The notes beneath the pieces are model-generated. The model did not search any database. It saw nothing but the letters and a program-made list of their open reading frames with translations, and was not told the DNA's origin. The position numbers and the translations under genes are program-made. A DNA stretch of 64,000 nt, taken from Candidatus Kapaibacterium sp. (GTDB lineage Bacteria; Bacteroidota; Ignavibacteria; Palsa-1295). Of the stretch, positions 20,522 to 59,335 are shown piece by piece. Positions within the stretch are counted from its first letter, which is position 1. Each line of letters opens with the position of its first letter. The stretch spans positions 5,930 through 69,929 of the forward strand of contig JBBQWV010000014.1 of NCBI GenBank assembly GCA_038210275.1. Reading direction: 5' to 3'.

Positions 20522-20545
20522 ACGGACGGACTGAGAGTCCGTCCC
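20522..20545. repeat. Family-2 perfect palindrome GGACGGACTgagAGTCCGTCC
   Basis: It matches the palindromes at 51154-51200 and 52099-52115. The adjacent CTAAAGAC...AACTAACGACTG (20571-20598) matches the repeats in the atp intergenic regions. Confidence 0.6.
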
Positions 20546-20584
20546 ACTGGAGATTATTCTCTTCGTTCTGCTAAAGACCAACAA

Positions 20585-21217
20585 CTAACGACTGCCCGTA
20601 TCCTTCCGTACTACGATCGGAGCTTGCGGCGGCATACTTAGTTGACTATTCGGTGTGGAGAATGTCGGGGCGTTGCTGGAATTTTCGAAGGTGTTTGTGG
20701 GTGCGTCAATGATCGGAAGAAGAATTCTGTAGTTGACGAGATCCTGATCGCTTTCGAAGCCATGCCCGCGAGTGATGCGTCCGGATTTTTCGGAAATTTT
20801 GACAAATGCATCGGAGTGAAGTTTGTGTGTGCCGTTATTCCATAGCAAAGAATCGGTTTGCACAAGCGTCCCCGAATCGCTGAGGACTTTGACACTGTCA
20901 TACGCCGTCATGTTCTTCGTGTTGTCGTCAATATAGGCGCGACGTGAAGTCAGGACGGATGAATGATTACTTTCGCGATCAAAAAAATCCACGCGCACAC
21001 TGGAATCCAACATCGTATAACGCTTCTGCTCAAAAACGCGAACGCCAATAGCATTCATCACGGCACGAATTTTTCCTTCGCTGGAAAATGCCATGCGCGT
21101 ATGAGCGCTTGTCTGCGACGGCATTTCTTCCGTTGATACAAGAGGTGCAGTGCTTGGCTTGACTTCGTTGGTTGCACAGGAAGCGAGGAGGAAGAGGGGT
21201 GTGATAAAAAATGTCAT
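20585..21217 (-). CDS. lptC: LptC-like periplasmic protein (LPS export), lipoprotein-type signal
   Basis: After start correction to MTFFITPLFLLASC, the length (about 210 aa) and position immediately downstream of kdsD match the kdsD-lptC arrangement. The sequence similarity to LptC is weak. The track ORF start at 21346 reads through a family-1 repeat. Confidence 0.5.
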   Translation of the reverse strand: MTFFITPLFLLASCATNEVKPSTAPLVSTEEMPSQTSAHTRMAFSSEGKIRAVMNAIGVRVFEQKRYTMLDSSVRVDFFDRESNHSSVLTSRRAYIDDNTKNMTAYDSVKVLSDSGTLVQTDSLLWNNGTHKLHSDAFVKISEKSGRITRGHGFESDQDLVNYRILLPIIDAPTNTFENSSNAPTFSTPNSQLSMPPQAPIVVRKDTGSR

Positions 21218-21324
21218 TGCGAGAAATCGCGAAGCGACACCGAAGCAATCTAAAAATCCAAAGTTTACCAATACTTTTAAGATTTTAGATTGCCAAGTCG
21301 GGTTAAAGCCCTCCTCGCAATGAC
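21213..21324. repeat. Family-1 composite element: two units in head-to-head inverted orientation (~112 bp, MITE-like) between kdsD and lptC
   Basis: The element reads GTCATTGCGAGAAATCGCGAAGCGACACCGAAGCAATCTAAAAA...TTTTAGATTGCCAAGTCGGGTTAAAGCCCTCCTCGCAATGAC. Confidence 0.75.
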
Positions 21325-21342
21325 ATGTTAATGAATTGTTCT

Positions 21343-22338
21343 TCAATTTATCCCTGCTTTCACGATATCATGCAAATGTATCATTCCGATAACGATGCCG
21401 GCTCCATCCACGACCGGAAGCTGCATGACTTTCGGATTGGTATCTTCCATGAGGTGTAGCGCATCGAAGGCAAGAATATCGGCAGTCGTCGTCTTTGGAG
21501 ATGCTGCCATGAGTTCGGCAGCAGTGACTTTGCGGGTATCTAACTGCTCATGCGATTGAAAAAATCGTCGGAGATCACCATCGGTTACGATGCCCAGAAG
21601 TTCCCCGCTTTCGCCGATCACACATGCTGCACCAAACCGTTTGCCGGAGATTTCCTGCATAATGGAATTCAGTGATGAGTCTTTTTTGATACGCGGAATA
21701 TTGTCGCCGCTTACCATCAGATCGCGAACGTGCATCGTCAACTTTCTTCCAAGCGCTCCGCCGGGATGAAGTTTTGCAAAATCTTCACTGGTAAAATTCC
21801 GTGCTTCCAAGAGCGCAATAGCAAGCGCATCGCCTATAACAAGCTGTGCCGTCGTCGAAGAAGTCGGCGCGAGATCATGGGGGCACGCTTCTTCTTTTAT
21901 GATCGGATAAAGCACTACGCCATTAGATTTCTTCGCAGCATTAGCAAGCCGCGAAGTTGAAGACGAAGTGATCGCAATAATTGGAACGATGGAATTCAAG
22001 AGAGAAGTCAGTTCGTCGGATTCTCCACTTTTCGAAAGTATTATCATCACATCATCTGACGATACTAATCCAATATCGCCATGTGCGGCTTCACTCGGGT
22101 GAAGAAAAATTGCAGGAGTGCCGGTGGAAGTCAACGTGGATGCGGTCTTGCGGGCTATATGTCCGGATTTCCCCATACCGCTGACGATGACTCTACCTTT
22201 GCACGAAAGCAAAATATCACAAGCTTTTGCGAAATCAAGTTCATCGAGTGAGTCAATAGTTTGCTGTAAGGCAAGCGTTTCGACAGCGAAGGTTCGCTTT
22301 GCGGACTTGAGATATGATTCTGAGTTCTTGCTATGCAC
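21343..22338 (-). CDS. kdsD: Arabinose-5-phosphate isomerase (KpsF/GutQ/KdsD; SIS + tandem CBS domains)
   Basis: The SIS motif reads GRVIVSGMGKSGHIARKTASTLTSTGTPAIFLHPSEAAHGDIG. The C-terminus carries a CBS pair (IPRIKKDSSLNSIMQEI...GIVTDGDLRR). Confidence 0.9.
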   Translation of the reverse strand: MHSKNSESYLKSAKRTFAVETLALQQTIDSLDELDFAKACDILLSCKGRVIVSGMGKSGHIARKTASTLTSTGTPAIFLHPSEAAHGDIGLVSSDDVMIILSKSGESDELTSLLNSIVPIIAITSSSTSRLANAAKKSNGVVLYPIIKEEACPHDLAPTSSTTAQLVIGDALAIALLEARNFTSEDFAKLHPGGALGRKLTMHVRDLMVSGDNIPRIKKDSSLNSIMQEISGKRFGAACVIGESGELLGIVTDGDLRRFFQSHEQLDTRKVTAAELMAASPKTTTADILAFDALHLMEDTNPKVMQLPVVDGAGIVIGMIHLHDIVKAGIN

Positions 22339-22340
22339 TG

Positions 22341-23081
22341 TTATTTTCCGAATAGTTTTTGGAATATACTCTTCTTCGGTTTCACGGTTTCAATGATGAT
22401 TCCTGTTGTATCGAATTTGCGATGTGCTTTTTTATCGTATTCAAGCAGCGCTTTGATATATTCGGTATCGGTGAAATCATCAACCATCTCGAAGAACGAA
22501 GCTGGATGACTGATTAGTTTGGCATCGCGAATATGCTTTGTCCTCAAAAGCTCGTCATAAAAGTTGGTAAGCGGAAGAAGTTGGTTGAATCCTGAACTCT
22601 CATGATGCAGCCAAAGCACTTTTTTTGCAACACTAATTGCAAGAATATATTTTAGTGAGCCATTCGTATCTTTGATCGCAATTTCACGAACTTTCTGCGA
22701 TGTTGCGGGGCAAGGATCACCGCTTTTCCAATAGGAATAACACCACAGATTCGTGATCTGCGGCGAATCAGGGATTGGGAAAACTCCGGAAAACTGAACT
22801 TCAAGCTGTCCATCAATATTGTGATCATGAATGCTGATGGCAAGCGGCAAATTATTGATCAAGCATTCTCCATACCCTACAACAGGCGGCATACCGAGTG
22901 TGAGATCGATCGGTGAAATTATTTTATCAATGAGCAGATTTCCTTCGCCCCATCTTCCATCACCGATGACTTGCGAGGTTTTAATAAAATCATGATATGG
23001 TTTGTACGCCGGAATATTTTCCGGAAGAAGCCGAAAAAGTAAATCTAGTTCTTGTGAAGAAAGTGATCGAGGATAGATCAT
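22341..23081 (-). CDS. Uncharacterised 246-aa protein embedded in the KDO operon
   Basis: Its stop is 2 nt from the kdsD start and its start overlaps the kdsA stop, so it is translationally coupled. I recognise no motif; it has no HAD DxDGT signature and so is not KdsC. Confidence 0.7.
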   Translation of the reverse strand: MIYPRSLSSQELDLLFRLLPENIPAYKPYHDFIKTSQVIGDGRWGEGNLLIDKIISPIDLTLGMPPVVGYGECLINNLPLAISIHDHNIDGQLEVQFSGVFPIPDSPQITNLWCYSYWKSGDPCPATSQKVREIAIKDTNGSLKYILAISVAKKVLWLHHESSGFNQLLPLTNFYDELLRTKHIRDAKLISHPASFFEMVDDFTDTEYIKALLEYDKKAHRKFDTTGIIIETVKPKKSIFQKLFGK

Positions 23082-23087
23082 CGAAAA

Positions 23088-23918
23088 TTACTGTTCAGTA
23101 AATCTGAATTGCAAAAGCGAACGGAGCAAAGCTTCAAGTTCACCAAGCGGAAGTTGGGACTGGGCATCGCTCTTAGCTTTCGCCGGATCGGGATGCGTTT
23201 CGATGAAAAGTCCGTCAATGCCGACAGCCATTGCAGCGCGGGCAAGCGGTGCGATGAATTGGCGATTGCCGCCGCTGATTCCATTTTGTGATGGTCGCTG
23301 AACGGAATGCGTAGCATCATAAATGATGGGCGAACCAAATTCCTTCATGATCTCAAGTGAACGAAAATCAACAATAAGATCGCCATAACCAAACGACGTT
23401 CCGCGTTCAGTAAGCAAAATATTATTGTTGTCTTTGCTTGTGACTTTTTCTTTTGCAAATTTCATATCAAATGGCGACATAAACTGTGCTTTCTTGATAT
23501 TGATCACTTTTCCTGTCTCGGCAGCCGCTTCAAGAAGATCGGTTTGCCTGGCAAGAAAAGCAGGTATCTGCAAAACATCACAAACTTCCGCAGCTAATGC
23601 CGCTTCACCTGGAAGATGAATATCTGTTAGGATAGGAAGAGAGAATTCTTTTTTAATATCGGCAAGATACGAAAGAGCTTTTTCGTCGCCGATACTTGAA
23701 ATGCTTGTGCCGCTTGTCCGATTGGCTTTGCGATAGGAAGATTTAAATATAAAATTCACCGGCAATACGCTTTGAATTCTACAAAGTTCAGTTGCAACTT
23801 GCTGAAGCAATTCTTTCGATTCGACCAAGCATGGTCCCGCAATAACAGGAAATGGAACGGCTCCAAAAAAAGAGATGCTTCGGTTGTCCGGCGATATAAT
23901 GGTGACGTTTTCTTTCAT
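23088..23918 (-). CDS. kdsA: 2-dehydro-3-deoxyphosphooctonate aldolase (KDO-8-phosphate synthase)
   Basis: PVIAGPCLVESKELLQQVATEL...ANRTSGTSISSIGDEKAL...TDIH is the KdsA/DAHP-synthase-family core, and the protein is 276 aa. Confidence 0.92.
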   Translation of the reverse strand: MKENVTIISPDNRSISFFGAVPFPVIAGPCLVESKELLQQVATELCRIQSVLPVNFIFKSSYRKANRTSGTSISSIGDEKALSYLADIKKEFSLPILTDIHLPGEAALAAEVCDVLQIPAFLARQTDLLEAAAETGKVINIKKAQFMSPFDMKFAKEKVTSKDNNNILLTERGTSFGYGDLIVDFRSLEIMKEFGSPIIYDATHSVQRPSQNGISGGNRQFIAPLARAAMAVGIDGLFIETHPDPAKAKSDAQSQLPLGELEALLRSLLQFRFTEQ

Positions 23919-24013
23919 TCACTATTGATGGAAAGCCATAGAACAAGTGGTGGGTAGTAAAGATTTGCACAGGGAAAAGAATCCAAATACTCTCATTGTA
24001 AGTATAAAAGAAT

Positions 24014-24126
24014 GTCATCGCGTGTTGGGGCTTTAGCCCGACGTGTAATCTAAAAACTTGAAGATTGGATCATTATTAAAGATTTTAGATCGCCACGTCG
24101 TCCGCAAGCGGACTCCTCGCGATGAC
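24014..24126. repeat. Family-1 composite element (two inverted units, ~113 bp) between kdsA and plsC
   Basis: The element reads GTCATCGCGTGTTGGGGCTTTAGCCCGACGTGTAATCTAAAAACTTGAAGATTGG...TTTTAGATCGCCACGTCGTCCGCAAGCGGACTCCTCGCGATGAC. Confidence 0.75.
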
Positions 24127-24157
24127 ACTATAATAATATCACATTAAATAGAAAAAT

Positions 24158-25477: not shown

Positions 25478-25561
25478 TGTCGTGATAGATAGTAGTGAAA
25501 ATTGTCGTACGTTTTGATCCTCAAAAATACGATGGAAAATCTTTTGATTCGAGAAAATCGC

Positions 25562-28777: not shown

Positions 28778-29269
28778 TTAATTAACGTCACCAAAGAGAA
28801 GCTTATCACCGATCGGATAATAATGAAAACTTGCCATTTTTTTCTTGTTGCCTTTAATGAGATTGATCTGGTAATGCATCAATTGTCCCAAAGGAGTATC
28901 CTTGCTTTTAAAAACGGCAAAATATTCTTGATGCATTTCCGGATAATCAGTTAGCATCTTCTTAATTTTCTCCACAACATCATGGACGTGTTTTGCATCA
29001 TCGGGATTAGTAAGTGAAGCGGCATGATTCCAATTCACAACTTTTCCGGTATCGCGGCAGGCAATTTCGGCAGCCGCGCTATCAAGATTTCCTGCAAGCG
29101 CGTATTTTTTCAAATTAGTAATATGCGCAAACATCTCATCCGAAATAGAATCGCGCACCATTTGAGAGAGCATGACGACATCTTCGCGTGGCATTTTTCC
29201 CATTCCGCCTTGTGCGTAAAGAGTTGACGAAAGAAAAATTGCAGAGACAATAATAAATAAGTATTTCAT
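28778..29269 (-). CDS. Secreted protein of unknown function (~163 aa)
   Basis: I trimmed the start to MKYLFIIVSAIFLSSTLYAQ, which is a signal peptide. The longer ORF start reads through a family-1 repeat. Confidence 0.5.
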   Translation of the reverse strand: MKYLFIIVSAIFLSSTLYAQGGMGKMPREDVVMLSQMVRDSISDEMFAHITNLKKYALAGNLDSAAAEIACRDTGKVVNWNHAASLTNPDDAKHVHDVVEKIKKMLTDYPEMHQEYFAVFKSKDTPLGQLMHYQINLIKGNKKKMASFHYYPIGDKLLFGDVN

Positions 29270-29288
29270 AATTGTGTTCAAGTAAAGT

Positions 29289-29331
29289 GTCATTGCGAGC
29301 TGGGCTTTAGCCCTGCGTGGCAATCTAAAAA
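29289..29331 (+). repeat. Family-1 repeat unit (single) between divergent genes
   Basis: The unit reads GTCATTGCGAGCTGGGCTTTAGCCCTGCGTGGCAATCTAAAAA. Confidence 0.7.
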
Positions 29332-29464
29332 CTTGATCATTGGCAGTACGCTCAGGTTTAATAGATACCAAGCCAGTAATGATACGAATAATTGTAAATT
29401 TGATACGGCGACCTTTTCATATTTAATGAATGTTTCATCGCCTCAGAATAAGATAATGTTTTTT

Positions 29465-39708: not shown

Positions 39709-42588
39709 TTACCATACCCATTCAGGAATATGCACTACCGAACCGATGGCACTGCGAATCGGACGCCATATTGCCCAGAAGAGACTGACGTTGGGATCAA
39801 TATCAGCATTGATTTCTCCAGTATGGAGTGGGCGATCAAGTTCGGGTGTATTATGCGAACGCATAAAAAGTGCATTTGCCAAAAATGAGAATAATCCCGG
39901 CGGAAATTTATCCCATCTGAAAAATTTGACGCGAAGACTATCATATTGCGGCACGAGCGTTCCGGTCATTAAAGTATTTTTCAGCTCAATATTGAATTGA
40001 GCTGACCTTACAACTCCGCTTAGGGTGAAAGGCTCTGTAAGTGCAAGATAATTATTTAAGAGCGATGCGTCCATACTTCCGGCAGTCCCCTTTATTTTCA
40101 GATCAAGAACCGGATTCATAAGTTGATACTCCAAATTAAAATTAACTAAACCTTCATTCATGAGCTTCAGATCGCCTTCAATTGGTGTTACAAAATGCTG
40201 CCCATGAGTACTTGAATCATTGGATATCTCACCAATGTGGGCATTGACATTAGTCATTATGATCGTACCGGGTTCCGTCGTATCTGGCCAGCTTTCGCGA
40301 AATGAGATAATTCCATTTTGGGCAGCAACAGATTTTATGCCCAGAGGCACTCGTATTTTTTGAAATATTTCCTGCGGATATATTTCCTTGGATGTATGAG
40401 GCGCTTCGGGTTTGCGCCTATCGCCATAGACATGAAGCGCCCAGTTGGCTAATTGAATGCTATCGGCAAATATGCCTTTACCCAAAAGTAATCGTTGATA
40501 ATCAAGACCTTCAATGGAAATATGCGGCGCAAAAAGCTTGATGCGTTCAGTCCGAAATTGAAATGCGTTTCCAAAAGAATCTTCGGGGATAAGTGGATAT
40601 ACGATTACTGAATCAATCGAAAGTGTACGTTTACGAAAATCACCTTTTATTCCACTTTCGGAATATCTATTTACCGCACCCGGCGTTTGCTGCGTCAATG
40701 CTCCGATCTGAAAAGTCCCGGCATCGCTGAAAAGCATTCCGCGTTTGGTGATCCATGAGTTTTTATCGAGCTTAAAATTTTTCAGTGATACTTGAAAATT
40801 CATAATTGAATCTCCGCGTCCGGGCGGATTTTTCGGATCATCAAGAAAGTGAATGCCATAAAGACTTCCACCTGACACGCTTACAGAACCAAAGGATGCG
40901 ATGGGCAATAGTAAGGGCAGCGGATATTCTTTAAATTGACGGATCCTCTCAAGAGGGTCGCTCGAAATTATCGAATCAAAACTTGTGATAGGAGTCGTTG
41001 CGCTTTCAGCAAGATATATTTTTGGGTCGCGCAGGGTAAGGCTTGAAGAAAATAATCCTTCGCGCATCAGAAGTTTCCAAATATTTACTCCACTCACTTC
41101 TGCAGATTTTAAACGAACAAGCTTTAAGCCTTTTACCGAAGGCTCTAAATTGATGTTCGATATTTTCAAAGATTTTTCAGTGCCATCCATCCGACCGAAT
41201 TTCAGATTTCCAAGCGATGTATTCACACTGCTTTCGCCTTTTATTCCGTAGTTTGCATTCTTGCTGAAAAAATTAGAGATATTTGCAAATGGCGTTGTTT
41301 TATCAACTTTGAATTGCCGAAGGGACAATGTAATTCTTTTTAGTGCACTGACGGAATGAGCTTGCGGAAGCAGCGCATAAACTTCAGCATTTGTTACATT
41401 GACCGATTGCAACTCAATGCTCGGAAGTAAACTCGGAAGCGGAATGAGATCAGATGCTGAGAGATGATCAGCATAACTTGGATGCGGGCGAATCTGTGAC
41501 ACATCCTGCAATTCAATGCGAGGATTATTTATTGTCGCATTTCTGGCATGAAATCCAAGACCTGCAAGTGCAGCAGACCAATCAAGTCCGGAGAATTCTA
41601 TTTGCTTAATAGAAGTTTTTCTGATCTCTTCGATCGGTTTTCTTGCAATGATATTTGAGATCATCATTGATGAATCAATGAGATCACCATCCACTGATGC
41701 AACATCAATATCCGTTACGCCAAGCGAATCGACATGAGAAATATCTTCTGCGTGGAACGTTGCACTCTTGCAGAAGAAAGTGGAGAGAGCTGTTTTATAT
41801 GTAGGCTCATCAAGATAAAAATCACGGAATTCAAGCGAGGCATTTTTGACAAGTAAACCACCCCCATTTAGCGGCAACGCACTTTTACCATCATTAGATA
41901 TCGCGGCAGGGGACGTAGGGGTACCTTCAGAGAAATACAATTGGGCATTTTCTATCTTAATAGTTTTTGATGACACCGCCGGAAGAAAACTTGGAAGCAA
42001 TCCGGTATTTGCTGCAAATTTAGGAAGCGTACCGGGACGTAAATAAATTTTTGGAGAACGAATATTTATAGAGCCGGCAAAAAGACCTTTTTGTAAAATT
42101 AATTTCCAGTAATCAAGACCGGCAATGACCACGGTATCTGTCGAGAACCTGTCAAGCGGAGTTGCGACACCGAAATCGGCAGAGCTTGTATCCGTCTTCC
42201 CGTCTTCTGATCTTCCATTATCAATGATCCTCACGCCGGTAAGGATAAGACTATCTTTATTTGGGGATAGGGTGATGCTATTCATTTGCAATGAATAGCG
42301 GCGTCCAAGACGGTCAACGACGAACTGCTTCAGTTTCGGCTCGACAGCATAATGAACGATCGTGTTTGGAAAAAAAGTTACAATAATACCGCCTATGATC
42401 GCAACAAGGAGAATTGCTCCTGCGACAGAATAAATGATCTTTCGTCTTCGTGAATGTGGTTTTCGCGTTTTGACGCCTTCGGTCTTACGAACGTCTTCTC
42501 TTTCTGGCATAATAGTGGTTTTAATACTTATTGGGGAAGTACTCATATCAAACGAAATTGGGCTTGTATCGGTTCGAAAGAGAGTCAA
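39709..42588 (-). CDS. Large membrane-anchored protein, AsmA/TamB-like (DUF748-type) (959 aa)
   Basis: A single N-terminal TM helix (IIYSVAGAILLVAIIGGIIVTFF) is followed by a long beta-rich periplasmic region. I made the family call from architecture only. Confidence 0.45.
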   Translation of the reverse strand: MTLFRTDTSPISFDMSTSPISIKTTIMPEREDVRKTEGVKTRKPHSRRRKIIYSVAGAILLVAIIGGIIVTFFPNTIVHYAVEPKLKQFVVDRLGRRYSLQMNSITLSPNKDSLILTGVRIIDNGRSEDGKTDTSSADFGVATPLDRFSTDTVVIAGLDYWKLILQKGLFAGSINIRSPKIYLRPGTLPKFAANTGLLPSFLPAVSSKTIKIENAQLYFSEGTPTSPAAISNDGKSALPLNGGGLLVKNASLEFRDFYLDEPTYKTALSTFFCKSATFHAEDISHVDSLGVTDIDVASVDGDLIDSSMMISNIIARKPIEEIRKTSIKQIEFSGLDWSAALAGLGFHARNATINNPRIELQDVSQIRPHPSYADHLSASDLIPLPSLLPSIELQSVNVTNAEVYALLPQAHSVSALKRITLSLRQFKVDKTTPFANISNFFSKNANYGIKGESSVNTSLGNLKFGRMDGTEKSLKISNINLEPSVKGLKLVRLKSAEVSGVNIWKLLMREGLFSSSLTLRDPKIYLAESATTPITSFDSIISSDPLERIRQFKEYPLPLLLPIASFGSVSVSGGSLYGIHFLDDPKNPPGRGDSIMNFQVSLKNFKLDKNSWITKRGMLFSDAGTFQIGALTQQTPGAVNRYSESGIKGDFRKRTLSIDSVIVYPLIPEDSFGNAFQFRTERIKLFAPHISIEGLDYQRLLLGKGIFADSIQLANWALHVYGDRRKPEAPHTSKEIYPQEIFQKIRVPLGIKSVAAQNGIISFRESWPDTTEPGTIIMTNVNAHIGEISNDSSTHGQHFVTPIEGDLKLMNEGLVNFNLEYQLMNPVLDLKIKGTAGSMDASLLNNYLALTEPFTLSGVVRSAQFNIELKNTLMTGTLVPQYDSLRVKFFRWDKFPPGLFSFLANALFMRSHNTPELDRPLHTGEINADIDPNVSLFWAIWRPIRSAIGSVVHIPEWVW

Positions 42589-42596
42589 CGGATAAT

Positions 42597-42639
42597 GTCA
42601 TTGCGAGGAGTGCTTTAGCACGACGCGGCAATCTAAAAA
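42597..42639 (+). repeat. Family-1 repeat unit (single)
   Basis: The unit reads GTCATTGCGAGGAGTGCTTTAGCACGACGCGGCAATCTAAAAA. Confidence 0.7.
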
Positions 42640-42725
42640 CTTTAACATTTTGAAGTTGAACATCCTTCATGAATCTTTTCCCATCCCCTAATCGTATAGT
42701 GGTAACTTAATTATTCAAGCTATTT

Positions 42726-49924: not shown

Positions 49925-51145
49925 TTGCGCATGACGCTACGTCGCAGGGTCACAATCTTTTTTCTATTTGTCGTCCTGCTTGCAGGTCCGGCGATAGCGA
50001 GCGAAGAATCTCCGAAAGACTCCTCAGCATCCGGCACTCCTGTAGTGAAGGAGACGAAATCTCCGATGAGCGAAGAAGAGCAGGAAAACGACATTTGGAA
50101 AAATGAGAAGAAAGATACGATTGATGCCGGCAAGCTCTTCGGCAAGATCATCAAGCATTTGGAGGATACCTACGAACTCCATTTCATTAGCGTTAAGATT
50201 CCGCTTCCTATCCTCTTTACTGATGCTTCCGGCTTTCATTTTTTTTCAAGCTTAGAAAAACTTGTTGAATCGGGAGTTTATAAATTAAGAGATCCGGAAA
50301 AATACGAAGAGCAGAAAAAGAAAGCTCTCTTTGGCTTCATCACTCCTTGGGAGCGCGTTGATGGGAAAGAAGCAGGCTTTACGCTTGATCTATCCATGAC
50401 GGCGAACAGATTCTTCCTTCTCGTTGCAATGTTTGTTCTTATTCTTATTACATGGGCAGCAGGTAGAAAAGCGAAAACAAAAGTTATCCCAAAAGGGAAT
50501 CACAATCTTATTGAGTCGCTCGTCGTGTATGTCCGCGATGAGATCGTCTATCCGAATATTGAAAAGAAATGGGCTGATCGCCTGATGCCGTATTTCCTTA
50601 CGACATTCTTTTTCATCTTCATCATCAATATGATCGGGCTTGTGCCTTTGACCAAGACTCCCACCGGCAATCTTGCCGTAACGGTAACTTTGGCGATCTG
50701 CACATTCATCCTTACTCAGATCATGGGTATCAGGACGATGGGGCTTTCAGCTTACTTAAAACATTTTACGGGCGGATTGCATGAGATGGATATTCCACTT
50801 GCTATGAAGATCGTGCTTATCATGATCATGGTGCCGATCGAATTCATCGGACTTTTTACAAAGCCTTTCGCTTTGACGATGCGTTTATTTGCGAATATGA
50901 CGGCAGGTCATATTGTTATTGGAGCACTTATCGGATTGGCACTGTTGTTTCAATCAGTGATCGCAGGGTTTGCAGTTTCGGTGCCGTTCGCTTTGTTTAT
51001 CTATTTGCTCGAATTGCTTGTTGCTGCATTGCAGGCATTTGTGTTTACAATGCTCTCGGCAGTGTTTGTAGGAATGATGGTGCATGAGCATCATGAAGGT
51101 GGGCATGAGACGAAAGAAGAGCGATTGGCTGAAGTGAGTATCTAA
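49925..51145 (+). CDS. atpB: F0F1 ATP synthase subunit a, with ~170-aa N-terminal extension
   Basis: The C-terminal half has the subunit-a TM bundle with the essential Arg in MRLFANMTAGHIV. The N-terminus has a signal-like segment and an acidic hydrophilic region. Confidence 0.9.
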   Translation: MRMTLRRRVTIFFLFVVLLAGPAIASEESPKDSSASGTPVVKETKSPMSEEEQENDIWKNEKKDTIDAGKLFGKIIKHLEDTYELHFISVKIPLPILFTDASGFHFFSSLEKLVESGVYKLRDPEKYEEQKKKALFGFITPWERVDGKEAGFTLDLSMTANRFFLLVAMFVLILITWAAGRKAKTKVIPKGNHNLIESLVVYVRDEIVYPNIEKKWADRLMPYFLTTFFFIFIINMIGLVPLTKTPTGNLAVTVTLAICTFILTQIMGIRTMGLSAYLKHFTGGLHEMDIPLAMKIVLIMIMVPIEFIGLFTKPFALTMRLFANMTAGHIVIGALIGLALLFQSVIAGFAVSVPFALFIYLLELLVAALQAFVFTMLSAVFVGMMVHEHHEGGHETKEERLAEVSI

Positions 51146-51153
51146 AATTTAAT

Positions 51154-51200
51154 GGGACGGACTTTAGTCCGTCAGTCTCAAACGGACTAAAGTCCGTCCC
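51154..51200. repeat. Family-2 nested palindrome GGGACGGACTTTAGTCCGTC...ACGGACTAAAGTCCGTCCC between atpB and atpE
   Basis: The inverted repeat is perfect, and its arms each contain the palindrome ACGGACTTTAGTCCGT. Confidence 0.65.
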
Positions 51201-51263
51201 ACTGTCAAAAAAGTTTTATTTTTGTAATATAGTTTATTCATATTAATATAAAGGAATAGAAAA

Positions 51264-51491
51264 ATGAATCCATCAGCATTCGCATACTTATCAGCAGGGC
51301 TCGGAGCAGCAGTCGCCGTTGTCGGCGCAGGAGTCGGAATCGGCAAACTCGCAACCGGCGCTTTGGAAGCAATGGGACGCCAGCCTGAAATGTCCGGCGG
51401 TATCCGTACGACGATGATCATCGCCGCCGCTCTGATCGAAGGACTTGCGCTGTTCGCGCTCGTTATCTGTATCATTCTTTCAGGTAAATAG
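51264..51491 (+). CDS. atpE: F0F1 ATP synthase subunit c
   Basis: GLGAAVAVVGAGVGIGKLATGALEAMGRQPEMSGGIRTTMIIAAALIEGLALFALVI has the conserved carboxylate E. Confidence 0.95.
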   Translation: MNPSAFAYLSAGLGAAVAVVGAGVGIGKLATGALEAMGRQPEMSGGIRTTMIIAAALIEGLALFALVICIILSGK

Positions 51492-51498
51492 TTTTGGG

Positions 51499-51598
51499 CA
51501 GTCGTTAGTCGTTAGTCATTAGTCATTAGCAAATAATGCTGATGGCTCATGTCTCTCTGCTAACGACTAAAGACTAAAGACTAACGACTAAAGACTGC
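51499..51598. repeat. Family-2 inverted tandem-heptamer repeat (TAGTCGT/TAGTCAT x4 ... ACGACTAAAGACTAA x3) between atpE and atpF, ending 1 nt before the atpF ATG
   Basis: The left arm reads gcagtcgttagtcgttagtcattagtcattagc and the right arm reads gctaacgactaaagactaaagactaacgactaaagactgc. Confidence 0.65.
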
Positions 51599-51599
51599 C

Positions 51600-52091
51600 A
51601 TGTTAGAAATTAATCCTGGACTGTCCATCTGGACGCTCATCATTTTTGGCTTACTGCTGGTCCTCCTTTCGAGGATCGCATGGAAGCCGATTCTTGCATC
51701 TCTTAAACGGCGCGAAGAGGCAATTGCCGATTCGCTTTCGAAAGCAGAGCAAGCACGGGCAGATGCTGAAAAGCTTATTGCCGAAACCGAGCGTCAGCGC
51801 AAGTTGAACGAAGAGCAGCTTCATAAGCAGCTTCGCGAAGGCAAGGAATATGCCGAGCGCATGCGTTCTGAGCTTTCACAAAAAGCGCAGGAAGAAGCAA
51901 AGAAGATGCTCGATCAAGCAAAAGCGCAGATCGAACGTGATACGCAGATCGCAATATCACAGCTTCGCAACGAAGCCGCTGATCTTGCTATCGCCGCCGC
52001 GGGAAAGCTTCTTGATGAATCAATGAATGACGATAAGCATAAGAAGATCGTCGAGAAGTTCATTGCAGAGCTTCCAACGCAATCAAATTAA
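51600..52091 (+). CDS. atpF: F0F1 ATP synthase subunit b
   Basis: It has an N-terminal TM helix and a long charged coiled coil, is 163 aa, and holds the operon position of subunit b. Confidence 0.85.
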   Translation: MLEINPGLSIWTLIIFGLLLVLLSRIAWKPILASLKRREEAIADSLSKAEQARADAEKLIAETERQRKLNEEQLHKQLREGKEYAERMRSELSQKAQEEAKKMLDQAKAQIERDTQIAISQLRNEAADLAIAAAGKLLDESMNDDKHKKIVEKFIAELPTQSN

Positions 52092-52098
52092 AGAATAG

Positions 52099-52146
52099 TG
52101 GAACGGACTTTAGTCCAACCCACCGTAAACTAACGACTAAAGACTG
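52099..52146. repeat. Family-2 repeat (GGAACGGACTTTAGTCC + AACTAACGACTAAAGACTG) between atpF and atpH
   Basis: It is a partial palindrome plus the conserved CTAACGACTAAAGACTG motif, and it lies 5 nt before the atpH ATG. Confidence 0.55.
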
Positions 52147-52151
52147 ATTTC

Positions 52152-52706
52152 ATGGATCAACGCATTGCACTTCGCTACGCACAGGCTCTGATGGATATCG
52201 GCAAGGAGAAAAACTCCGTGGCTGAGATCGCCGGCGATATGAAAGTGGTTCGTGATGCCCTGCATGATGTGCATGAGCTAAAGGCAATGCTCCATACTCC
52301 TGTTATCCGTCCGGATATTAAACGGAAAGTGATCCATCAAGTATTCGAAAAGCATGTCAGTAAAGACGTTATGCTTTTTATGGATCTGCTTTTGAAAAAA
52401 GGCAGAGGCAATGTGTTAGCAGTGACGACGGAAGAATTCTTGCGACTGCTTGATATTGATACCAATACGGTAGCCGCACATATCACCAGTGCCCGCACGT
52501 TGGATGAAAGTGCAAAGCAGCAGATCGTTGCGAAGCTCGAAAAAATTTCGTCAATGAAAGTACGCGCTTCATACTCGCTCGATCCGGCACTGCGCGGGGG
52601 CTTTGTTGCGAAGGTTGGCGATACGCTGATTGATGCAAGCTTGCAGCATCAGCTCGAAAATTTACGCGAAGAATTAAAGGCTTCGGTAGTTGCGAGGGTG
52701 AACTGA
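52152..52706 (+). CDS. atpH: F0F1 ATP synthase subunit delta (OSCP)
   Basis: IALRYAQALMDIGKEKN... is an OSCP-like N-terminus, and the protein is 184 aa. Confidence 0.85.
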   Translation: MDQRIALRYAQALMDIGKEKNSVAEIAGDMKVVRDALHDVHELKAMLHTPVIRPDIKRKVIHQVFEKHVSKDVMLFMDLLLKKGRGNVLAVTTEEFLRLLDIDTNTVAAHITSARTLDESAKQQIVAKLEKISSMKVRASYSLDPALRGGFVAKVGDTLIDASLQHQLENLREELKASVVARVN

Positions 52707-52708
52707 TA

Positions 52709-53467
52709 ATGAAGAACAAAGCAGCATTCACCGCATTGGTATGTGCTCTGCTTGTGGGCTTGGGAGCTATGGTTTTTACTGATCCATCTCTTGCTCAGAT
52801 CAAGAAGAAAAAAAAGAAGAAGCATAAATCTTCGATAACTCTTGCTCCGCCATCAAATTTTTCGCCCACAATGACCGGCGCTCCGGGAACAGTAAAATAT
52901 TACTTCTTTCCCAATGATACCGGCATTACTTGGAAGCTTAGGACTATTCAAGTGCTGATCAATCAGGAAGGCAAGCTTGTAAGAGCCGATACTGTATTTA
53001 GCGAATCTCGCGTTATTGAGAATGACCGATTTTCTCTTCAGCGATTACCGCTGATGGTGACATCCGATACCTCATATAGAATTGGGGGAATCGGCGCCAG
53101 ATCGGAATCGGTATTCTATGTTGATGATTCAGTTGCGATGACCGTATTTAATAATTCCGTAGTCGGCGAAGGAAACAGTATCTTTCTCGTTGCTCCGGTG
53201 AAAATCACAAACGCATGGCATGAGAAATCGGATGATACAACGATAACCGCAGTTGCCGGAATTGTCGATTCAATTGTTACACCGCTCGGAAGATTTGATA
53301 GTGTTTTGGTGACGATCACGCAGCAGGAGTATTCTGATATGCGAAAGTATTATGCTCATGGTCGCGGTATCATCAAGACGGTTTTTCGTTCAGTCGGACC
53401 CGGAGGTAGAGGACTTGTCGTCATTACGATGGAGATGGTTGAGTTCAAAAAGCCGGGTTGGAATTAG
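52709..53467 (+). CDS. Secreted hypothetical protein (252 aa) inserted between atpH and atpA
   Basis: The junction TGAtaATG couples it translationally to atpH. It has a signal peptide (ALVCALLVGLGAMVFT...AQ), an N-terminal K7 run encoded by an A8 tract, and no recognisable domain. Confidence 0.65.
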   Translation: MKNKAAFTALVCALLVGLGAMVFTDPSLAQIKKKKKKKHKSSITLAPPSNFSPTMTGAPGTVKYYFFPNDTGITWKLRTIQVLINQEGKLVRADTVFSESRVIENDRFSLQRLPLMVTSDTSYRIGGIGARSESVFYVDDSVAMTVFNNSVVGEGNSIFLVAPVKITNAWHEKSDDTTITAVAGIVDSIVTPLGRFDSVLVTITQQEYSDMRKYYAHGRGIIKTVFRSVGPGGRGLVVITMEMVEFKKPGWN

Positions 53468-53519
53468 GAAAGTACAAGAAATTTTATCAGTAGTTTTATA
53501 ATAATTAGAGTACAAAATT

Positions 53520-55061: not shown

Positions 55062-55182
55062 TTTTGAGTTTTAGGTTATGAGTTTTGAATATGATTATAC
55101 TCATAGCTCAAGATTCTTAAGCGTCCTCGCAACTTCTTGCAGGATAAGGGGTTCTTTAGTGCATGAGTATTATTCGCTAAAG

Positions 55183-56304
55183 ATGAAAAAATATTTTTCC
55201 ATCCCCGTATTCTTTGGTGTTCTTTGTCAATTTTGCATTTTTGCTAATTCACTGTATTCACAGCAAAAGGATTCGTCAAAGTCAATGGTATTTGTTGATT
55301 CAAAGACTTCTGAAAACTTGACGCCATCCGGACCACGTTTTGGAGGGATTGTAAGCGCCAACTTCGGAGCCTATAGCGGATTTCACGATATTGGACTTTA
55401 TAGCTCGATTCTTCAGCCAAATTTGGGAATAGAGTTTCTTGCAGAGCCCGGAGGACCGTTAGGATTTCTTATTGGAGCGCGGTTCGGGGTTTTGAGTAGC
55501 GTTACAACAGAAGTATCAGTAGGTTTGCGCGATCAGATTGCAACTCCTAACAGAGATATTAGACTCTTTGGTGATCTCAGTATAATTTTTTTCCATGATG
55601 CTGGATTCATCGGACCATACAAATATGGAGCACGTCTTGCATTCGGAGCGCGGACACTGGGAAATTTAGATATAGAATACCGGCTTGCAGGTGAGTGGAG
55701 AGGCAAGGGGTTTGATAGCATTGATGGGTATAGGTCACGAATGCTGTGGTGGGTAGGCGCAGAGGTGGGGATCGGCTTCTCGCTCTTTAGAGTATCAAAA
55801 CCACTGACCCGAAAAGATTCACTTCATGCAGCATTACAATATATTGCAAGCGGTGAAGAAATGGAAGATCTTGATTCGCAATCATCGGATGAGAGATTGG
55901 ATCGTTGGCTTGACAGATTTTGGCGGATCAGAGATCTTACGCCCGATACAAAACTAAATGAAGCGCGGATCGAATATGAGAAAAGAGTCGAAGAGGCAAA
56001 CAGAATATATTCTCATGGAAAGACTCTTGGCATACAGACCGATCCGGGAAGAGTATTAGCAATTTATGGACAGCCTGATCTTATCGATGAAGATCACTCT
56101 GCATATAACGATCAGGAAAAGTATATACTTTGGATATATTACGGAAGACTTAAAACGTTTTCTTTCGCAACATTTTTGTTTGCGAATACATCGTCAACAA
56201 ACAATTGGCAGCAAATATATTCGAATGTAGCCGGAGAACTTGGTGGGTATATTCCTGACGGACTTCCGAAAAGGTTACGAAGCAAGATAGAAAACACCCA
56301 ATAA
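55183..56304 (+). CDS. Secreted GWxTD-like domain protein (374 aa) inserted between atpA and atpG
   Basis: I trimmed the start to MKKYFSIPVFFGVLCQF, a signal peptide. The C-terminal block FWRIRDLTPDTKLNEARIEYEKRVEEANRIYSHGKTLGIQTDPGRVLAIYGQPDLI matches the GWxTD domain pattern (FWxxRDP...EYY.RV..AN..F......GWxTDRG..YI..G.PD), with W replaced by I. Confidence 0.55.
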   Translation: MKKYFSIPVFFGVLCQFCIFANSLYSQQKDSSKSMVFVDSKTSENLTPSGPRFGGIVSANFGAYSGFHDIGLYSSILQPNLGIEFLAEPGGPLGFLIGARFGVLSSVTTEVSVGLRDQIATPNRDIRLFGDLSIIFFHDAGFIGPYKYGARLAFGARTLGNLDIEYRLAGEWRGKGFDSIDGYRSRMLWWVGAEVGIGFSLFRVSKPLTRKDSLHAALQYIASGEEMEDLDSQSSDERLDRWLDRFWRIRDLTPDTKLNEARIEYEKRVEEANRIYSHGKTLGIQTDPGRVLAIYGQPDLIDEDHSAYNDQEKYILWIYYGRLKTFSFATFLFANTSSTNNWQQIYSNVAGELGGYIPDGLPKRLRSKIENTQ

Positions 56305-56337
56305 GAATTTTAGTAGAAGTTCAGAAAAAGCGAGATT

Positions 56338-57249
56338 ATGGCAACACTAAGAGAGATACGCCGACGCATTTCAAGCGTCAAAGCAACATCGAAGATCACG
56401 CAGGCAATGAAGATGGTTGCTGCTGCAAAATTGCGTCGCGCTCAAGATGCGATGATCTCTGCACGTCCGTATTCCCGTTCGCTTGATGCATTACTGAAAG
56501 ATCTTCTCGCAAGTGCCGGTGATGAAATTGCACAGTCCCCAATACTTTTCGGAAGACATCTTGAAGATCCGAAAACTGAAAAAGTCCTTCTTATAATCGT
56601 TTCAAGTGATCGTGGACTTGCCGGGGCGTTCAATGCCAATATCATAAAATTTGCTGAAGCAAGAATTCGCGAAGTATATCCTGAGCATCTTGCATCCAAA
56701 CGCCTCTCTTTAATTACTGTCGGCAGACGATGTACTGATTATTTCTCAAAAAGAGGTTATGATATTTTTGAGAAACATATCGGTATTTTTACAAAGCTTG
56801 ATTTCTCAACTGCTAAAGCAGTAGCCGATAGAGCAACAGAGCTTTTCGGAAATGCAGATTTCGATAAGATTGAGTTGATCTACAACGAATTTAAGTCTGT
56901 TATCACTCAAAAGCAAACTGCCGACAGGCTTCTCCCTGTTCTCGACCGCAGTGCTCTTGGAAAGATGCCAAAAAGAGAGGCAAGTATTGAATATATTTAC
57001 GAACCCGAACCTGCGGAAATCCTCAACGTCCTCGTTCCGCGCCAACTTGAAACTCAGGTTTGGAAATCATTGCTTGAGTCCAACGCTGCCGAACAAGGAG
57101 CAAGAATGACAGCAATGGATTCAGCGACAAAAAATGCGAAAGACCTTATCAGCGCATTGCAGCTATCCTATAACAAAGCCCGCCAAGCCGCGATCACGAA
57201 GGAAATCCTCGAGATCGTCGGAGGAGCAGAAGCCCTCACGAAGGGATAA
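56338..57249 (+). CDS. atpG: F0F1 ATP synthase subunit gamma
   Basis: MATLREIRRRISSVKATSKITQAMKMVAAAKLRRAQ is a typical gamma N-terminus, and the protein is 303 aa. Confidence 0.93.
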   Translation: MATLREIRRRISSVKATSKITQAMKMVAAAKLRRAQDAMISARPYSRSLDALLKDLLASAGDEIAQSPILFGRHLEDPKTEKVLLIIVSSDRGLAGAFNANIIKFAEARIREVYPEHLASKRLSLITVGRRCTDYFSKRGYDIFEKHIGIFTKLDFSTAKAVADRATELFGNADFDKIELIYNEFKSVITQKQTADRLLPVLDRSALGKMPKREASIEYIYEPEPAEILNVLVPRQLETQVWKSLLESNAAEQGARMTAMDSATKNAKDLISALQLSYNKARQAAITKEILEIVGGAEALTKG

Positions 57250-57362
57250 TTACCTGAACAGTGTTCGGGGGATTTGTAGGGATTCCGCAGATTATAGATT
57301 TACGTGTAACAAAACCAAAATCCCTGGGTTCTTTAAGTGAGTTCAATTCTACTTAAACAGTT

Positions 57363-58550
57363 ATGAAACACACATCTATTTTCTTTTTCGTTGTGAGCCT
57401 TCTTTTTTGCTCTAATTCGAATCTTTTCGCTCAGCAAAAACAAGTGCATATTTCTATCCCCAGTACAGGAGTTGATACCATTGATTATGGAGTAATATCA
57501 GCGATGTCCGGTGTGGAAGATTATAGTATTTGGATTCATAATCCAAAAAATGAGTCACTACAATATACGATAGGATTGCCGGATACGAATGGGTTTACGA
57601 CTGCTCCTGTACTTTGGTTTGCTGATAGCGGTTATATCGCAACAATAGCACCTAATGATTCCATTCGAGTCTATGCCATTTTGCTACCTAGTTTTTGGAA
57701 AACTACATTGTCATTGGATGGTACTTCGTTATTATGGGATGGTACTTCGGATCAAACACTCGATATTCACGTGGGAATACTAGCAAAGACATTAACGGAT
57801 TTGCCTCAAAAATGGACAGAAGTAATTCATGATATAGTTTATGTTCACATACCTCTTGACCTTGATAAAGGAATTTCTCTTTATCAAAATCAATTAGTTT
57901 GGAATTCACTCTATGGAGAAGATTCTTTGTTTTATCCGCTCAATAGTATTTTGTATTCCAACGATCAGGACTCTGAAGTGACGATTCAAAAGGTATTCAT
58001 TCCTAAGGGAAGTTGTTTCTCAATCACTGGGTACTCCGATTCAAATTTTCCTGTGACGCTCCATAAGGGTGATGTTTTTAAAGTTTATCTTTCCTTTAGT
58101 GATATTCCTGATACGATTGGATACACCGTTTTTGCAGATGCTAATGATTCAACGGTAATTGATACCGGTTATTATAATCTTATTGTTGTAATAACCGATA
58201 CAACCTATCCTGTTTCAAAAGCTAATTATAAAGGTGCACAGCCTAAAAAAGAATTGAATCAGGCTCTTGTTGATTTGCCTAAACAACATCCTGCAGATAT
58301 TTTTATCAGTAATGATCCTGTTACCGAGGGTACTCGCATTACTCTGCCGCAAGCACGAAGTGCTACAATTAAAATCATTGATCTTTTAGGTGTTACTGTA
58401 GCCCAAGCAAATGCTACAGATTGGCGCTGGAATGGAGAATCGCGTTTGAGTAGTCGCTTGACGAACGGTATCTATACAGTTGAAGCAGATGGAATATCAA
58501 ATCAGGGGAAAGCATTTCAAGCCAGTAAAAATATTATTTTGATGAGATAA
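57363..58550 (+). CDS. Secreted protein with T9SS C-terminal sorting domain (395 aa)
   Basis: It has a signal peptide, and the C-terminal ~80 aa read ATIKIIDLLGVTVAQ...LTNGIYTVEADG, which fits the T9SS CTD pattern. Confidence 0.8.
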   Translation: MKHTSIFFFVVSLLFCSNSNLFAQQKQVHISIPSTGVDTIDYGVISAMSGVEDYSIWIHNPKNESLQYTIGLPDTNGFTTAPVLWFADSGYIATIAPNDSIRVYAILLPSFWKTTLSLDGTSLLWDGTSDQTLDIHVGILAKTLTDLPQKWTEVIHDIVYVHIPLDLDKGISLYQNQLVWNSLYGEDSLFYPLNSILYSNDQDSEVTIQKVFIPKGSCFSITGYSDSNFPVTLHKGDVFKVYLSFSDIPDTIGYTVFADANDSTVIDTGYYNLIVVITDTTYPVSKANYKGAQPKKELNQALVDLPKQHPADIFISNDPVTEGTRITLPQARSATIKIIDLLGVTVAQANATDWRWNGESRLSSRLTNGIYTVEADGISNQGKAFQASKNIILMR

Positions 58551-58610
58551 AAATTCTCTGACAATCAACTATCTACCATAGACCACCAACTTCCTCCGTA
58601 TTTTTGCAGA

Positions 58611-59324
58611 ATGAATCTGCAATCGAATCTTTCTCATTTGGAAAAAAGAATTGTCGCTGCCTGTGAGCGTGTCGGACGTATGCGAGATGAACTCACTCTG
58701 ATCGCCGTTACAAAAACTCATTCGGTTGAAGCGATTCAGGAAGCTTACGATCTCGGTCTCCGTGATTTTGGGGAGAACCGCGTGCAGGAGTTATTGAAGA
58801 AAAAAGAATTCTTCGCAAATCACGAATCACGAACCTCCAACTATGATGATATCCGTTGGCATTTGATCGGTCATCTTCAATCCAACAAAGCAAAGTATAT
58901 CGCTCCATTTATTCATTGCGTCCATTCGATAGATTCGCTTGAAACTGCGAAAGAGCTTTCGAAAAGAGCAGAGCAATCATCACGGAAGATAAATACTTTA
59001 CTCGAAATAAATGTTGCAGGCGAGACGACGAAAGAAGGAATTGCAGTTTCGGAAGTACGTGAACTTTTACGTAGTATTTTTGAAGAAGCAACTTCGCTCA
59101 ATGTTGAAGGGCTTATGACTGTTGCGCCATTTTTAGATGACTCTAAACTTGTTCGCCCATATTTCCGTGAACTTCGAAAATTACGGGATGAACTCGGATT
59201 AAAAGATCTTTCGATGGGAATGACAAATGATTTTGAAGTTGCGATTGAAGAGGGAGCGACTATGATTAGGATTGGTAGCGCGCTATTCGGCGAACGGGAA
59301 TACTTACTAACGGCTAATAACTAA
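58611..59324 (+). CDS. yggS: YggS-family pyridoxal-phosphate homeostasis protein (PLPHP)
   Basis: LIAVTKTHSVEAIQEAYDLGLRDFGENRVQEL...WHLIGHLQSNKAKY. The 3' end runs into a family-2 repeat fragment (CTAACGGCTAATAACTAACGACTG). Confidence 0.88.
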   Translation: MNLQSNLSHLEKRIVAACERVGRMRDELTLIAVTKTHSVEAIQEAYDLGLRDFGENRVQELLKKKEFFANHESRTSNYDDIRWHLIGHLQSNKAKYIAPFIHCVHSIDSLETAKELSKRAEQSSRKINTLLEINVAGETTKEGIAVSEVRELLRSIFEEATSLNVEGLMTVAPFLDDSKLVRPYFRELRKLRDELGLKDLSMGMTNDFEVAIEEGATMIRIGSALFGEREYLLTANN

Positions 59325-59335
59325 CGACTGAACTC

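Follow-up and report, generated by a model that had tools for sequence, protein, structure and literature searches.

What are the repeats that surround the gene for subunit c of the ATP synthase in a Candidatus Kapaibacterium species, and do any of them act on the operon in which they lie? The question arises from a 64-kb stretch of this genome (contig JBBQWV010000014.1), referred to here as the window, to which all repeat and gene counts for this genome apply. An earlier note had described a repeat family, family 2, made up of a palindrome and a conserved tail, at five sites: the atpB-atpE, atpE-atpF and atpF-atpH spacers, a position beside lptC, and the junction of yggS with the gene for a DivIVA-domain protein. 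Repeats are present at all five, and the identities of the genes at these sites, including the YggS-like, DivIVA and LptC proteins, were confirmed with NCBIfam and Pfam. The repeats do not form a single family. Family 2 is a composite of two elements of a Kapabacteria/Ignavibacteria-like lineage, a palindrome resembling repetitive extragenic palindromes (REPs) and their hairpin-forming doublets (REPINs), and tandem heptanucleotide arrays, (ACTAAMG)n. Palindrome and array adjoin at two sites only, the lptC 3′ end and the atpF-atpH spacer, and are separate at the other three. On balance we lean towards reading one copy, the hairpin between atpE and atpF, as an intercistronic RNA element that is under selection, is built from heptamer arrays and belongs to the processing-and-stabilisation kind, the other copies being insertions of the same repeat material.

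The genes of the operon run in the order atpB, atpE, atpF, atpH, a gene for an unknown 252-aa protein, atpA, the gene of a GWxTD-domain protein and atpG. Between atpE and atpF, two inverted heptamer arrays with 33-nt arms, detected by Tandem Repeats Finder as period-7 repeats at 51500-51529 and 51560-51596, pair into a hairpin of −49.1 kcal/mol (z −9.0 against shuffled sequence). This hairpin fills the spacer, its base lying 5 nt past the atpE stop codon and its other end at the atpF ATG. It is a stable stem-loop on the 3′ side of the gene whose product is most needed, and the genes of the operon continue beyond it. Canonical intrinsic terminators were considered and rejected: the plus strand has no T-run within 2 nt after either atp hairpin, and a terminator scan flagged only the minus-strand reading of the doublet at 51153-51201.

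The operon was compared in ten genomes, comprising the window and nine further orthologous atp operons whose AtpF is 93% to 62% identical to that of the window (retrieved loci carry L-numbers; the atp loci of relatives are L116-L118, L120-L125 and L246). The AtpF homologues come from metagenome-assembled genomes (MAGs) named Ignavibacteriota, Candidatus Kapabacteria/Kapaibacterium or Bacteroidota. The atpE-atpF spacer, 66-288 nt in length, is structured beyond shuffled sequence in all ten (z −8.2, −3.6, −6.5, −5.4, −7.5, −6.3, −3.0, −5.9, −8.7 and −3.9). The other spacers of the operon mostly have z between −2.8 and +1.7; only three of 36 that could be folded reach −2.8 or lower, namely atpB-atpE of the window (−9.0) and the atpA-GWxTD spacers of L124 (−4.1) and L123 (−2.8). 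The sequences that form the atpE-atpF structure differ. Four genomes (window, L121, L122, L123) have the heptamer-armed hairpin, L117/L118 have a hairpin with AGTCGAT-type arms that are also 7-nt periodic, L116, L120, L124 and L125 have unrelated small palindromes, and L246 has a REP-like doublet; in most relatives the two ends of the spacer pair with each other. The structure has been kept while its sequence has been replaced several times. This conservation of structure despite sequence turnover is the main argument that the hairpin at this site is under selection.

The four genomes sharing the heptamer hairpin allow a closer comparison. Their pairwise identity is 90% in the left arm, 93% in the right arm and 52% in the loop, set against 43-49%, near saturation, at the fourfold degenerate sites of atpF and atpH for the same genome pairs. 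Compared with relatives, fourfold sites are 65-85% identical in atpE and 31-49% identical in atpF and atpH. Of 26 predicted base pairs, 23 are unchanged in the four genomes, none shows a compensatory change, and within each heptamer it is the unpaired position that varies. Because the pairs are unchanged without compensatory change, the constraint appears to act on the sequence as well as on the pairing.

How might such an element work? On the polycistronic atp mRNA it would form an intercistronic stem-loop on the 3′ side of atpE and block 3′-to-5′ exonucleases, possibly after an endonucleolytic cleavage, so that the atpE-containing segment would outlive the distal part. It would also occlude the region just 5′ of the atpF start and lower expression of atpF and the later genes. 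The outcome would be an excess of subunit c. The doublet between atpB and atpE may add a barrier on the 5′ side, though it is not conserved.

Stem-loops involved in selective RNA processing and stabilisation (SRPS) offer a close parallel; the malE-malF REP and the hairpins of the puf operon are examples. In the F-ATPase operon of Clostridium cellulolyticum, processing sites lie on either side of the c-subunit gene and a stem-loop at its 3′ end; the transcript of this gene is 3-5 fold more abundant than those of its neighbours, and stem-loop stability correlates with transcript ratio (PMC4423207). Like that stem-loop, the atpE-atpF hairpin is stable, lacks a U-tract and lies directly 3′ of the highest-copy subunit gene in a polycistronic operon, and its structure is kept across relatives while the sequence changes. 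Known here from sequence, it differs in its far greater length and stability (arms of 33 nt, about −49 kcal/mol), in being built from repeats and in reaching the next start codon. Another parallel is with the Correia elements, or Neisseria miniature insertion sequences (NEMIS), miniature inverted-repeat elements that fold into RNA hairpins. These too have inverted ends, are inserted near genes and are co-transcribed with them, and stems as long and perfect as those described here would suit a double-strand-specific RNase; the repeats of the window differ in having no target-site duplication and no defined terminal inverted repeat beyond the heptamers, and in being known as DNA sequence only.

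The suggestion in the earlier note that hairpins around atpE serve as determinants of mRNA processing or stability thus fares differently at the two spacers. The ten structured spacers, the conservation of the arms and the C. cellulolyticum precedent argue for it at atpE-atpF. As a functional hairpin the atpB-atpE doublet is weakly supported: relatives have no comparably stable hairpin at this site, where L121 and L122 have diverged palindromes, L117 and L123 other sequences, and L120 and L125 nothing or no structure.

Several points weigh against a selected role even at atpE-atpF. The structure and its conservation are observed, and from them we infer an action at the RNA level, whether stabilisation, processing or attenuation. 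Hairpins with the same arms lie between unrelated genes elsewhere, so the element is not specific to atp operons and could be merely tolerated. Palindromic repeats might insert preferentially into this spacer, without selection for their presence there. The lack of compensatory changes counts on the same side, and conservation at the level of sequence, which a purely structural role does not require, could reflect recognition by a protein or homogenisation of tandem units.

Table 1. Coordinates of the repeat elements of family 2 and of the genes beside them in the window
Feature	Coordinates	Strand	Remarks
atpB	49925..51145		stop at 51145
REP/REPIN-like inverted doublet	51153..51201		between atpB and atpE; unit 1 GGGACGGACTTTAGTCCGTC, unit 2 ACGGACTAAAGTCCGTCCC, CACTG flank; 20 perfect pairs, 9-nt loop
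atpE, F0 subunit c gene (75 aa)	51264..51491	+	flanked by hairpins; stop at 51489-51491
Left arm, reverse heptamer array GGCAGTCGTTAGTCGTTAGTCATTAGTCATTAG	51497..51529	+	starts 5 nt after atpE stop
Hairpin loop/central region	51530..51566	+	poorly conserved
Right arm, forward heptamer array CTAAAGACTAAAGACTAACGACTAAAGACTGCC	51567..51599	+	ends directly before atpF ATG (51600)
atpF	51600..52091		
Degenerate palindrome GTGGAACGGACTTTAGTCCAACCCAC	52098..52123		atpF-atpH spacer
Forward heptamer array CTAACGACTAAAGACTG	52130..52146	+	5 nt before atpH ATG (52152)
atpH	52152..52706		
Single palindrome unit GGACGGACTGAGAGTCCGTCC	20524..20549		CACTG flank; downstream of lptC 3′ end (minus strand)
Heptamer array, CAGTCGTTAGTTGTTGGTCTTTAG on lptC coding strand	20571..20597	−	holds lptC TAG stop (20585-20587)
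lptC	20585..21346	−	TAG stop inside CAGTCGTTAG
Forward heptamer-like array TACTTACTAACGGCTAATAACTAACGACTG	59301..59330	+	30 nt; ends 5 nt before ATG (59336) of DivIVA-domain gene

The palindrome has the form GGACGGACT-N2-3-AGTCCGTCC with a CCACTG flank. In the lineage its fuller form is CAGTGG-GACGGACT-loop-AGTCCGTC-CCACTG, which is found both singly and as inverted doublets. The exact 9-mer GGACGGACT occurs four times in the window (20524+, 20536−, 51155+, 51191−), where about 0.5 occurrences are expected from length alone, and the palindrome as a whole lies at three sites. The doublet between atpB and atpE, previously given as a perfect 19-bp stem, is indeed perfect and extends to 20 pairs (51153-51172 with 51182-51201); together with the flanking spacer it folds at −41.7 kcal/mol (z −8.1). 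Rfam gave zero matches at gathering thresholds across the whole window, and at permissive E-values only sub-threshold matches to generic microRNA precursor hairpins. A literature search for the literal sequences of the family returned only primers and probes, and the heptamer strings were absent.

The tail that had been taken for a fixed conserved motif is the end of a tandem 7-nt array of ACTAACG/ACTAAAG units, as resolved by Tandem Repeats Finder. Allowing up to three mismatches, the tail ACGACTAAAGACTG has 14 matches against 3.99 expected, and none of 100 shuffled sequences reaches 14. There are five arrays in the window. Three are forward and end shortly before an ATG, within the 1-6 nt first reported: 2 nt from that of atpF and 5 nt from those of atpH and the DivIVA gene; two are reverse and lie at or after stop codons. 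Forward arrays contain TAA, and reverse arrays TAG, every 7 nt, so three units close all reading frames, which fits the arrays supplying the stop codons of lptC and yggS. The copy beside lptC exists and is not at a start codon, since lptC lies on the minus strand and the copy is 3′ of its stop. Next to this array stands GATTATTCT...GCTAA, which is similar to the inner right half of the element that L122 and L123 have between atpE and atpF. The array at 59301-59330 encodes the last residues of yggS and its stop codon (TAA, 59322-59324).

The two components may be related by origin. The array unit GACTAAA is the apex of the palindrome, ACGGACTAAAGTCCGT. In L010 (2304-2440) 7-nt repeats of CCACTAG/CCACTAA come after a doublet whose end is CCACTG, and in L083 (1790-1960) 10-nt repeats of ACCGGGGACA ahead of CCAGGGGACGG copy the 5′ flank of the palindrome. 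Because the unit equals the palindrome apex, and the L010 and L083 repeats copy palindrome ends, the heptamer arrays may arise by local amplification of palindrome termini.

The remaining copies, at atpB-atpE, atpF-atpH, the lptC 3′ end and yggS-divIVA, are best explained as repeat material that was inserted, in particular lineages, into very short spacers or into the 3′ ends of genes. The atpF-atpH spacer is 6 nt long in L116, L121 and L123, 9 nt in L124, 15 nt in L120, 60 nt in the window and 73 nt in L117/L118. As it is only 6-15 nt in five relatives, the palindrome of the window appears to be an insertion; L117/L118 have a different hairpin followed by a similar array, AACGACTAACGACTG, ahead of atpH. 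The empty site reads TAA-TATTTC-ATG in L123 and the filled site TAA-AGAATA...GACTG-ATTTC-ATG in the window, and this comparison of the two revealed no target-site duplication of the kind expected of a miniature inverted-repeat transposable element (MITE). The ancestral ATTTC has been kept before the atpH ATG, so the distance of 5 nt between tail and start codon at atpH is the remainder of the original spacer. At yggS-divIVA, five relatives have spacers of 9-31 nt without the array, L121 having a short AATAACGACTAC remnant, while in the window the end of yggS has been replaced by the array (...YLLTANN*). It therefore appears that the closeness of arrays to start codons reflects where insertion was possible and not a need in initiation.

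Could all the copies, the atpE-atpF hairpin included, be neutral or selfish REPIN- or MITE-like repeats at permissive or preferred targets? The palindrome has much in common with REPs and REPINs, also known as bacterial interspersed mosaic elements (BIMEs; PMC3733652; PMC3116915). It is short and G+C-rich, with a 9-10 bp stem and a 2-3 nt loop, occurs singly or in inverted doublets able to form one long hairpin, lies between genes at gene ends, is common to related genomes, has occasional in-frame intragenic copies (L029) and is found in many phyla. Short (20-40 bp) imperfect palindromes repeated in intergenic DNA occur at three sites of the window, and inverted doublets with a short spacer at 51153-51201 and also in L005, L007, L010, L035 and L052. 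REPs with GTAG or CGTC tags, dimers and intragenic copies have been described from eight phyla (PMC3733652). The repeats studied here differ in that no unpaired GTAG or CGTC tag was found in the window or its relatives, which carry CAGTGG/CCACTG(A) instead, and in the linkage of the palindrome to heptamer arrays at two sites. A tblastn search with IS200 TnpA and E. coli REP-associated tyrosine transposase (RAYT) sequences, which is a weak test, gave no match in the window or the palindrome loci and one match in an unrelated heptamer locus (L229). The possibility that a RAYT gene lies between the paired palindromes of L029 and L041 was rejected; ordinary genes are found there.

The palindrome core is widespread. 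A scan of GTDB genomes found it in at least 114 stretches from at least eight phyla, several genomes being multi-copy; uniform composition, the one baseline applied, predicts about 17 sites. Among the matches listed, classified by title, there are about 51 from Gammaproteobacteria, 33 from Planctomycetota, 10 from Acidobacteriota, 9 from Bacteroidota or unclassified, 5 from Chloroflexota, 4 from Actinomycetota and 1 each from Armatimonadota and Bdellovibrionota. The flanks are lineage-specific, CCGG/GGGG in Gammaproteobacteria and GTA...TAC in Planctomycetota, and ELA103 and bin140, the MAGs that hold L120 and L117, have a multi-copy core and the CAGTGG...CCACTG doublet. IMG/VR contained three palindrome matches, approximately the number expected by chance on a rough estimate, and so gave no sign of carriage by phage. 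Two loci show the palindrome in other settings. In a gammaproteobacterial chromosome (L029, 2739-2850) one exact and one inexact palindrome lie in-frame inside a 1250-aa open reading frame (ORF) and encode a repeated GDGLKSVP/DGLKSVP linker, as with intragenic REPs in the literature; in a Bacteroidetes MAG (L019, 5377-5796) three palindromes are spaced at exactly 200 nt within a 200-nt tandem repeat.

Heptamer arrays are similarly dispersed. A metagenome scan for 3.4 copies of ACTAANG found at least 120 stretches, with G+C contents from 0.32 to 0.67; many of the arrays listed resemble cyanobacterial heptamer repeats, and about 17% of them are accompanied by an inverted partner. G+C-rich contigs, too, contain long hairpins with (AGTCGTT)n/(AACGACT)n arms, often between co-directional genes of unrelated function. 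The idea that such hairpins mark complexes of unequal stoichiometry was abandoned, as the genes flanking them elsewhere are diverse (amidase/CxxCxxCC, GGDEF/dienelactone hydrolase, CHAD/PhoU-like, Wza/Wzc-like). One (AGTCGTT)n/(AACGACT)n hairpin (L211, 2163-2290; −84 kcal/mol with flanks) stands directly after atpB in the atpB-atpE spacer of a distant organism (AtpB 40% identical), in visibly G+C-rich surrounding sequence, and is a second, independent case of this hairpin type beside atpE.

Much of this would suit neutral repeats: the presence/absence polymorphism at atpB-atpE, atpF-atpH and yggS-divIVA, the copies that cut into or extend gene 3′ ends, the multi-copy palindrome core in many phyla, the heptamer-armed hairpins between unrelated genes, and the absence of covariation in the atpE-atpF hairpin. 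For the atpE-atpF hairpin itself we nevertheless consider neutrality unlikely, while giving it real weight. A strongly structured spacer has been kept in every one of the ten genomes despite sequence turnover, and arm identities of 90-93% beside about 45% at fourfold sites are hard to explain without selection or continuing homogenisation. The lack of a transposase match, in the weak test described, and of target-site duplications also speaks against it.

The earlier note had also proposed that the tail acts as a translation-initiation context in an organism that lacks Shine-Dalgarno sequences, and more generally the arrays could be initiation or regulator sites at start codons. The premise holds: a Shine-Dalgarno-like motif precedes 5 of 49 genes in the window, equal to the background of 5.0 ± 2.0 in random 17-mers. 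There is also a precedent. TAACTGA repeats are known from Beggiatoaceae, Cyanobacteria and five Bacteroidetes, where most have the forward orientation and stop 1 nt short of a start codon; some run into the 3′ end of the preceding ORF, one set is reversed just after a stop codon, and a role in translation was proposed for them without a test (PMC4679880). Heptamer repeats near start codons in Nostoc alter reporter expression (bioRxiv 10.1101/2022.06.06.494920). The arrays of the window share with these repeats 7-nt tandem units in 2-6 copies, common variant units, intergenic position, a mostly forward orientation ending a few nucleotides before the start, occasional overlap with the 3′ end of the ORF before them, occurrence in genomes or genes that have no recognisable ribosome-binding site, and relatives whose spacers are shorter and repeat-free. 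They differ from the TAACTGA repeats in their unit (ACTAACG/ACTAAAG), in having few copies per 64 kb, in that two arrays are inverted into a long hairpin where only one inverted case was noted in the Beggiatoa genome, and in that one copy is conserved at the orthologous site in four genomes. The reverse array form TTAGTCG/TTAGTCA resembles, without matching, the unit TTGGTCA of the short tandemly repeated repetitive (STRR) sequences.

The geometry, with three forward arrays ending 2-5 nt before ATGs as in the TAACTGA repeats, is what initiation sites would predict, as is the conservation of the hairpin arms at the level of sequence. Among the metagenome arrays listed the orientation is biased in the same sense, forward arrays outnumbering reverse ones 17 to 6 before starts and reverse outnumbering forward 37 to 14 at or after stops, by counts that rest on crude ORF calls. 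Against this, the orthologous atpH and DivIVA genes of close relatives start without any array, the sequence directly 5′ of the atpF ATG varies among relatives, the atpF-proximal array is sequestered in a stem of −49 kcal/mol, and of the five arrays two lie 3′ of genes in antisense orientation. A requirement for the array motif in initiation is not supported by these comparisons, and a general role of the arrays as initiation or regulator sites seems doubtful to us.

A more speculative idea, to which we attach little probability, would link the selected hairpin to translation. The succession of stop codon, hairpin and start codon would be a bacterial equivalent of ribosome shunting: ribosomes finishing atpE would unwind no more than the base of the stem and begin again on atpF, at a rate that is fixed and sub-stoichiometric. 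The c:b ratio would then be set in translation without a Shine-Dalgarno sequence, and the heptamers would be read by a single-strand RNA-binding protein of the cold-shock-domain or S1-like type.

Least probable of all is a purely DNA-level action without an RNA role, in which the elements would bind nucleoid proteins or gyrase, as is described for some E. coli REP clusters, or would be hotspots of recombination or replication slippage. The palindromes and arrays are strand-symmetric or occur in both orientations, and PMC3479197 and PMC3733652 report binding of integration host factor (IHF) to REP clusters and proposed roles in supercoiling, but nothing in the data points to a DNA-binding partner, and the conserved place exactly between stop and start codon within an operon fits an RNA role better.

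Other features of the atp operon, and one before yggS, were noted in passing. The atpE leader (51205-51263), AAAAAGTTTTATTTTTGTAA...AAGGAATAGAAAAATG, is kept in L117, L121, L122 and L123 despite saturated fourfold sites. It contains TATTTTTG (51217-51224), which we take to match the Bacteroidetes −7 promoter motif TAnnTTTG, and AGGA at −14 to −11, which is rare in this genome; the leader may serve atpE as an internal promoter or as an enhancer of translation. The sequence CCGTATTTTTGCAG (58599-58606) ends 4 nt before the yggS ATG and is kept in L116, L121 and L123 and slightly altered in L117. As a TAnnTTTG-like box it would be close enough to the start for the mRNA to be leaderless or nearly so. 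Two extra genes are found in the operon clade-wide, for the unknown protein of about 250 aa between atpH and atpA (52709-53467) and for the GWxTD-domain protein between atpA and atpG (55078-56304). The atpD and atpC genes lie outside this operon, and AtpB has a long N-terminal extension (weakly matching DUF8433 in relatives). An identical AtpF was found only in one NCBI contig and one short Logan contig. The latter (L001, 2154 nt), the only other assembly with this protein, starts inside atpE and ends just past the unknown gene, and assemblies of this organism may break near repeat-rich spacers.

The window also contains repeats unrelated to family 2. Family 1, TGTCATTGCGAGG...(variable palindrome)...GGCAATCTAAAA, is about 55 nt long and present in at least seven copies in both orientations (19333-19391, 20146-20203, 21206-21330, 24013-24129, 29265-29343, 42573-42652); its TGTC followed by a stem starting with AT resembles the CGTC/TGTC-tagged REPs of Chlorobi and Bacteroidetes (PMC3733652). 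A third family has the 7-nt unit TTTTGAC/TTTTGAG (3525-3557, 20335-20410, 55062-55092, 63435-63465). At 20335-20410 two inverted arrays of this type surround GGGGTCGCAACCC and fold at −27.9 kcal/mol (z −4.9), and at 55062-55077 such units fill the atpA-GWxTD spacer up to the ATG. Repeats of the form (TTTTGAA)3 have been described upstream of recF in Nostoc. The 1.4 kb at 19194-20584 are without long ORFs and dense in repeats: two inverted family-1 copies, the TTTTGAC hairpin and then a family-2 copy, with ACTACGAT twice (20090-20106) and 4.4 copies of TACTAAAC (20205-20250).

If the atpE-atpF hairpin is selected, as we think on balance, repeats usually treated as junk would have been recruited more than once, and from different families, to form a hairpin at one defined point of an essential operon, immediately 3′ of the gene that encodes the most abundant subunit of the ATP synthase. 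The repeats of the window add an uncultured Kapabacteria/Ignavibacteria-like lineage to the known range of REP-like palindromes and to that of the heptamer repeats, known from cyanobacteria, Beggiatoaceae and a few Bacteroidetes, and indicate that long hairpins can form from paired heptamer arrays in organisms that differ widely in G+C content. The atpE-atpF spacer thereby offers a concrete site for asking how bacteria that make no use of Shine-Dalgarno sequences set the ratios of subunits encoded in one operon.

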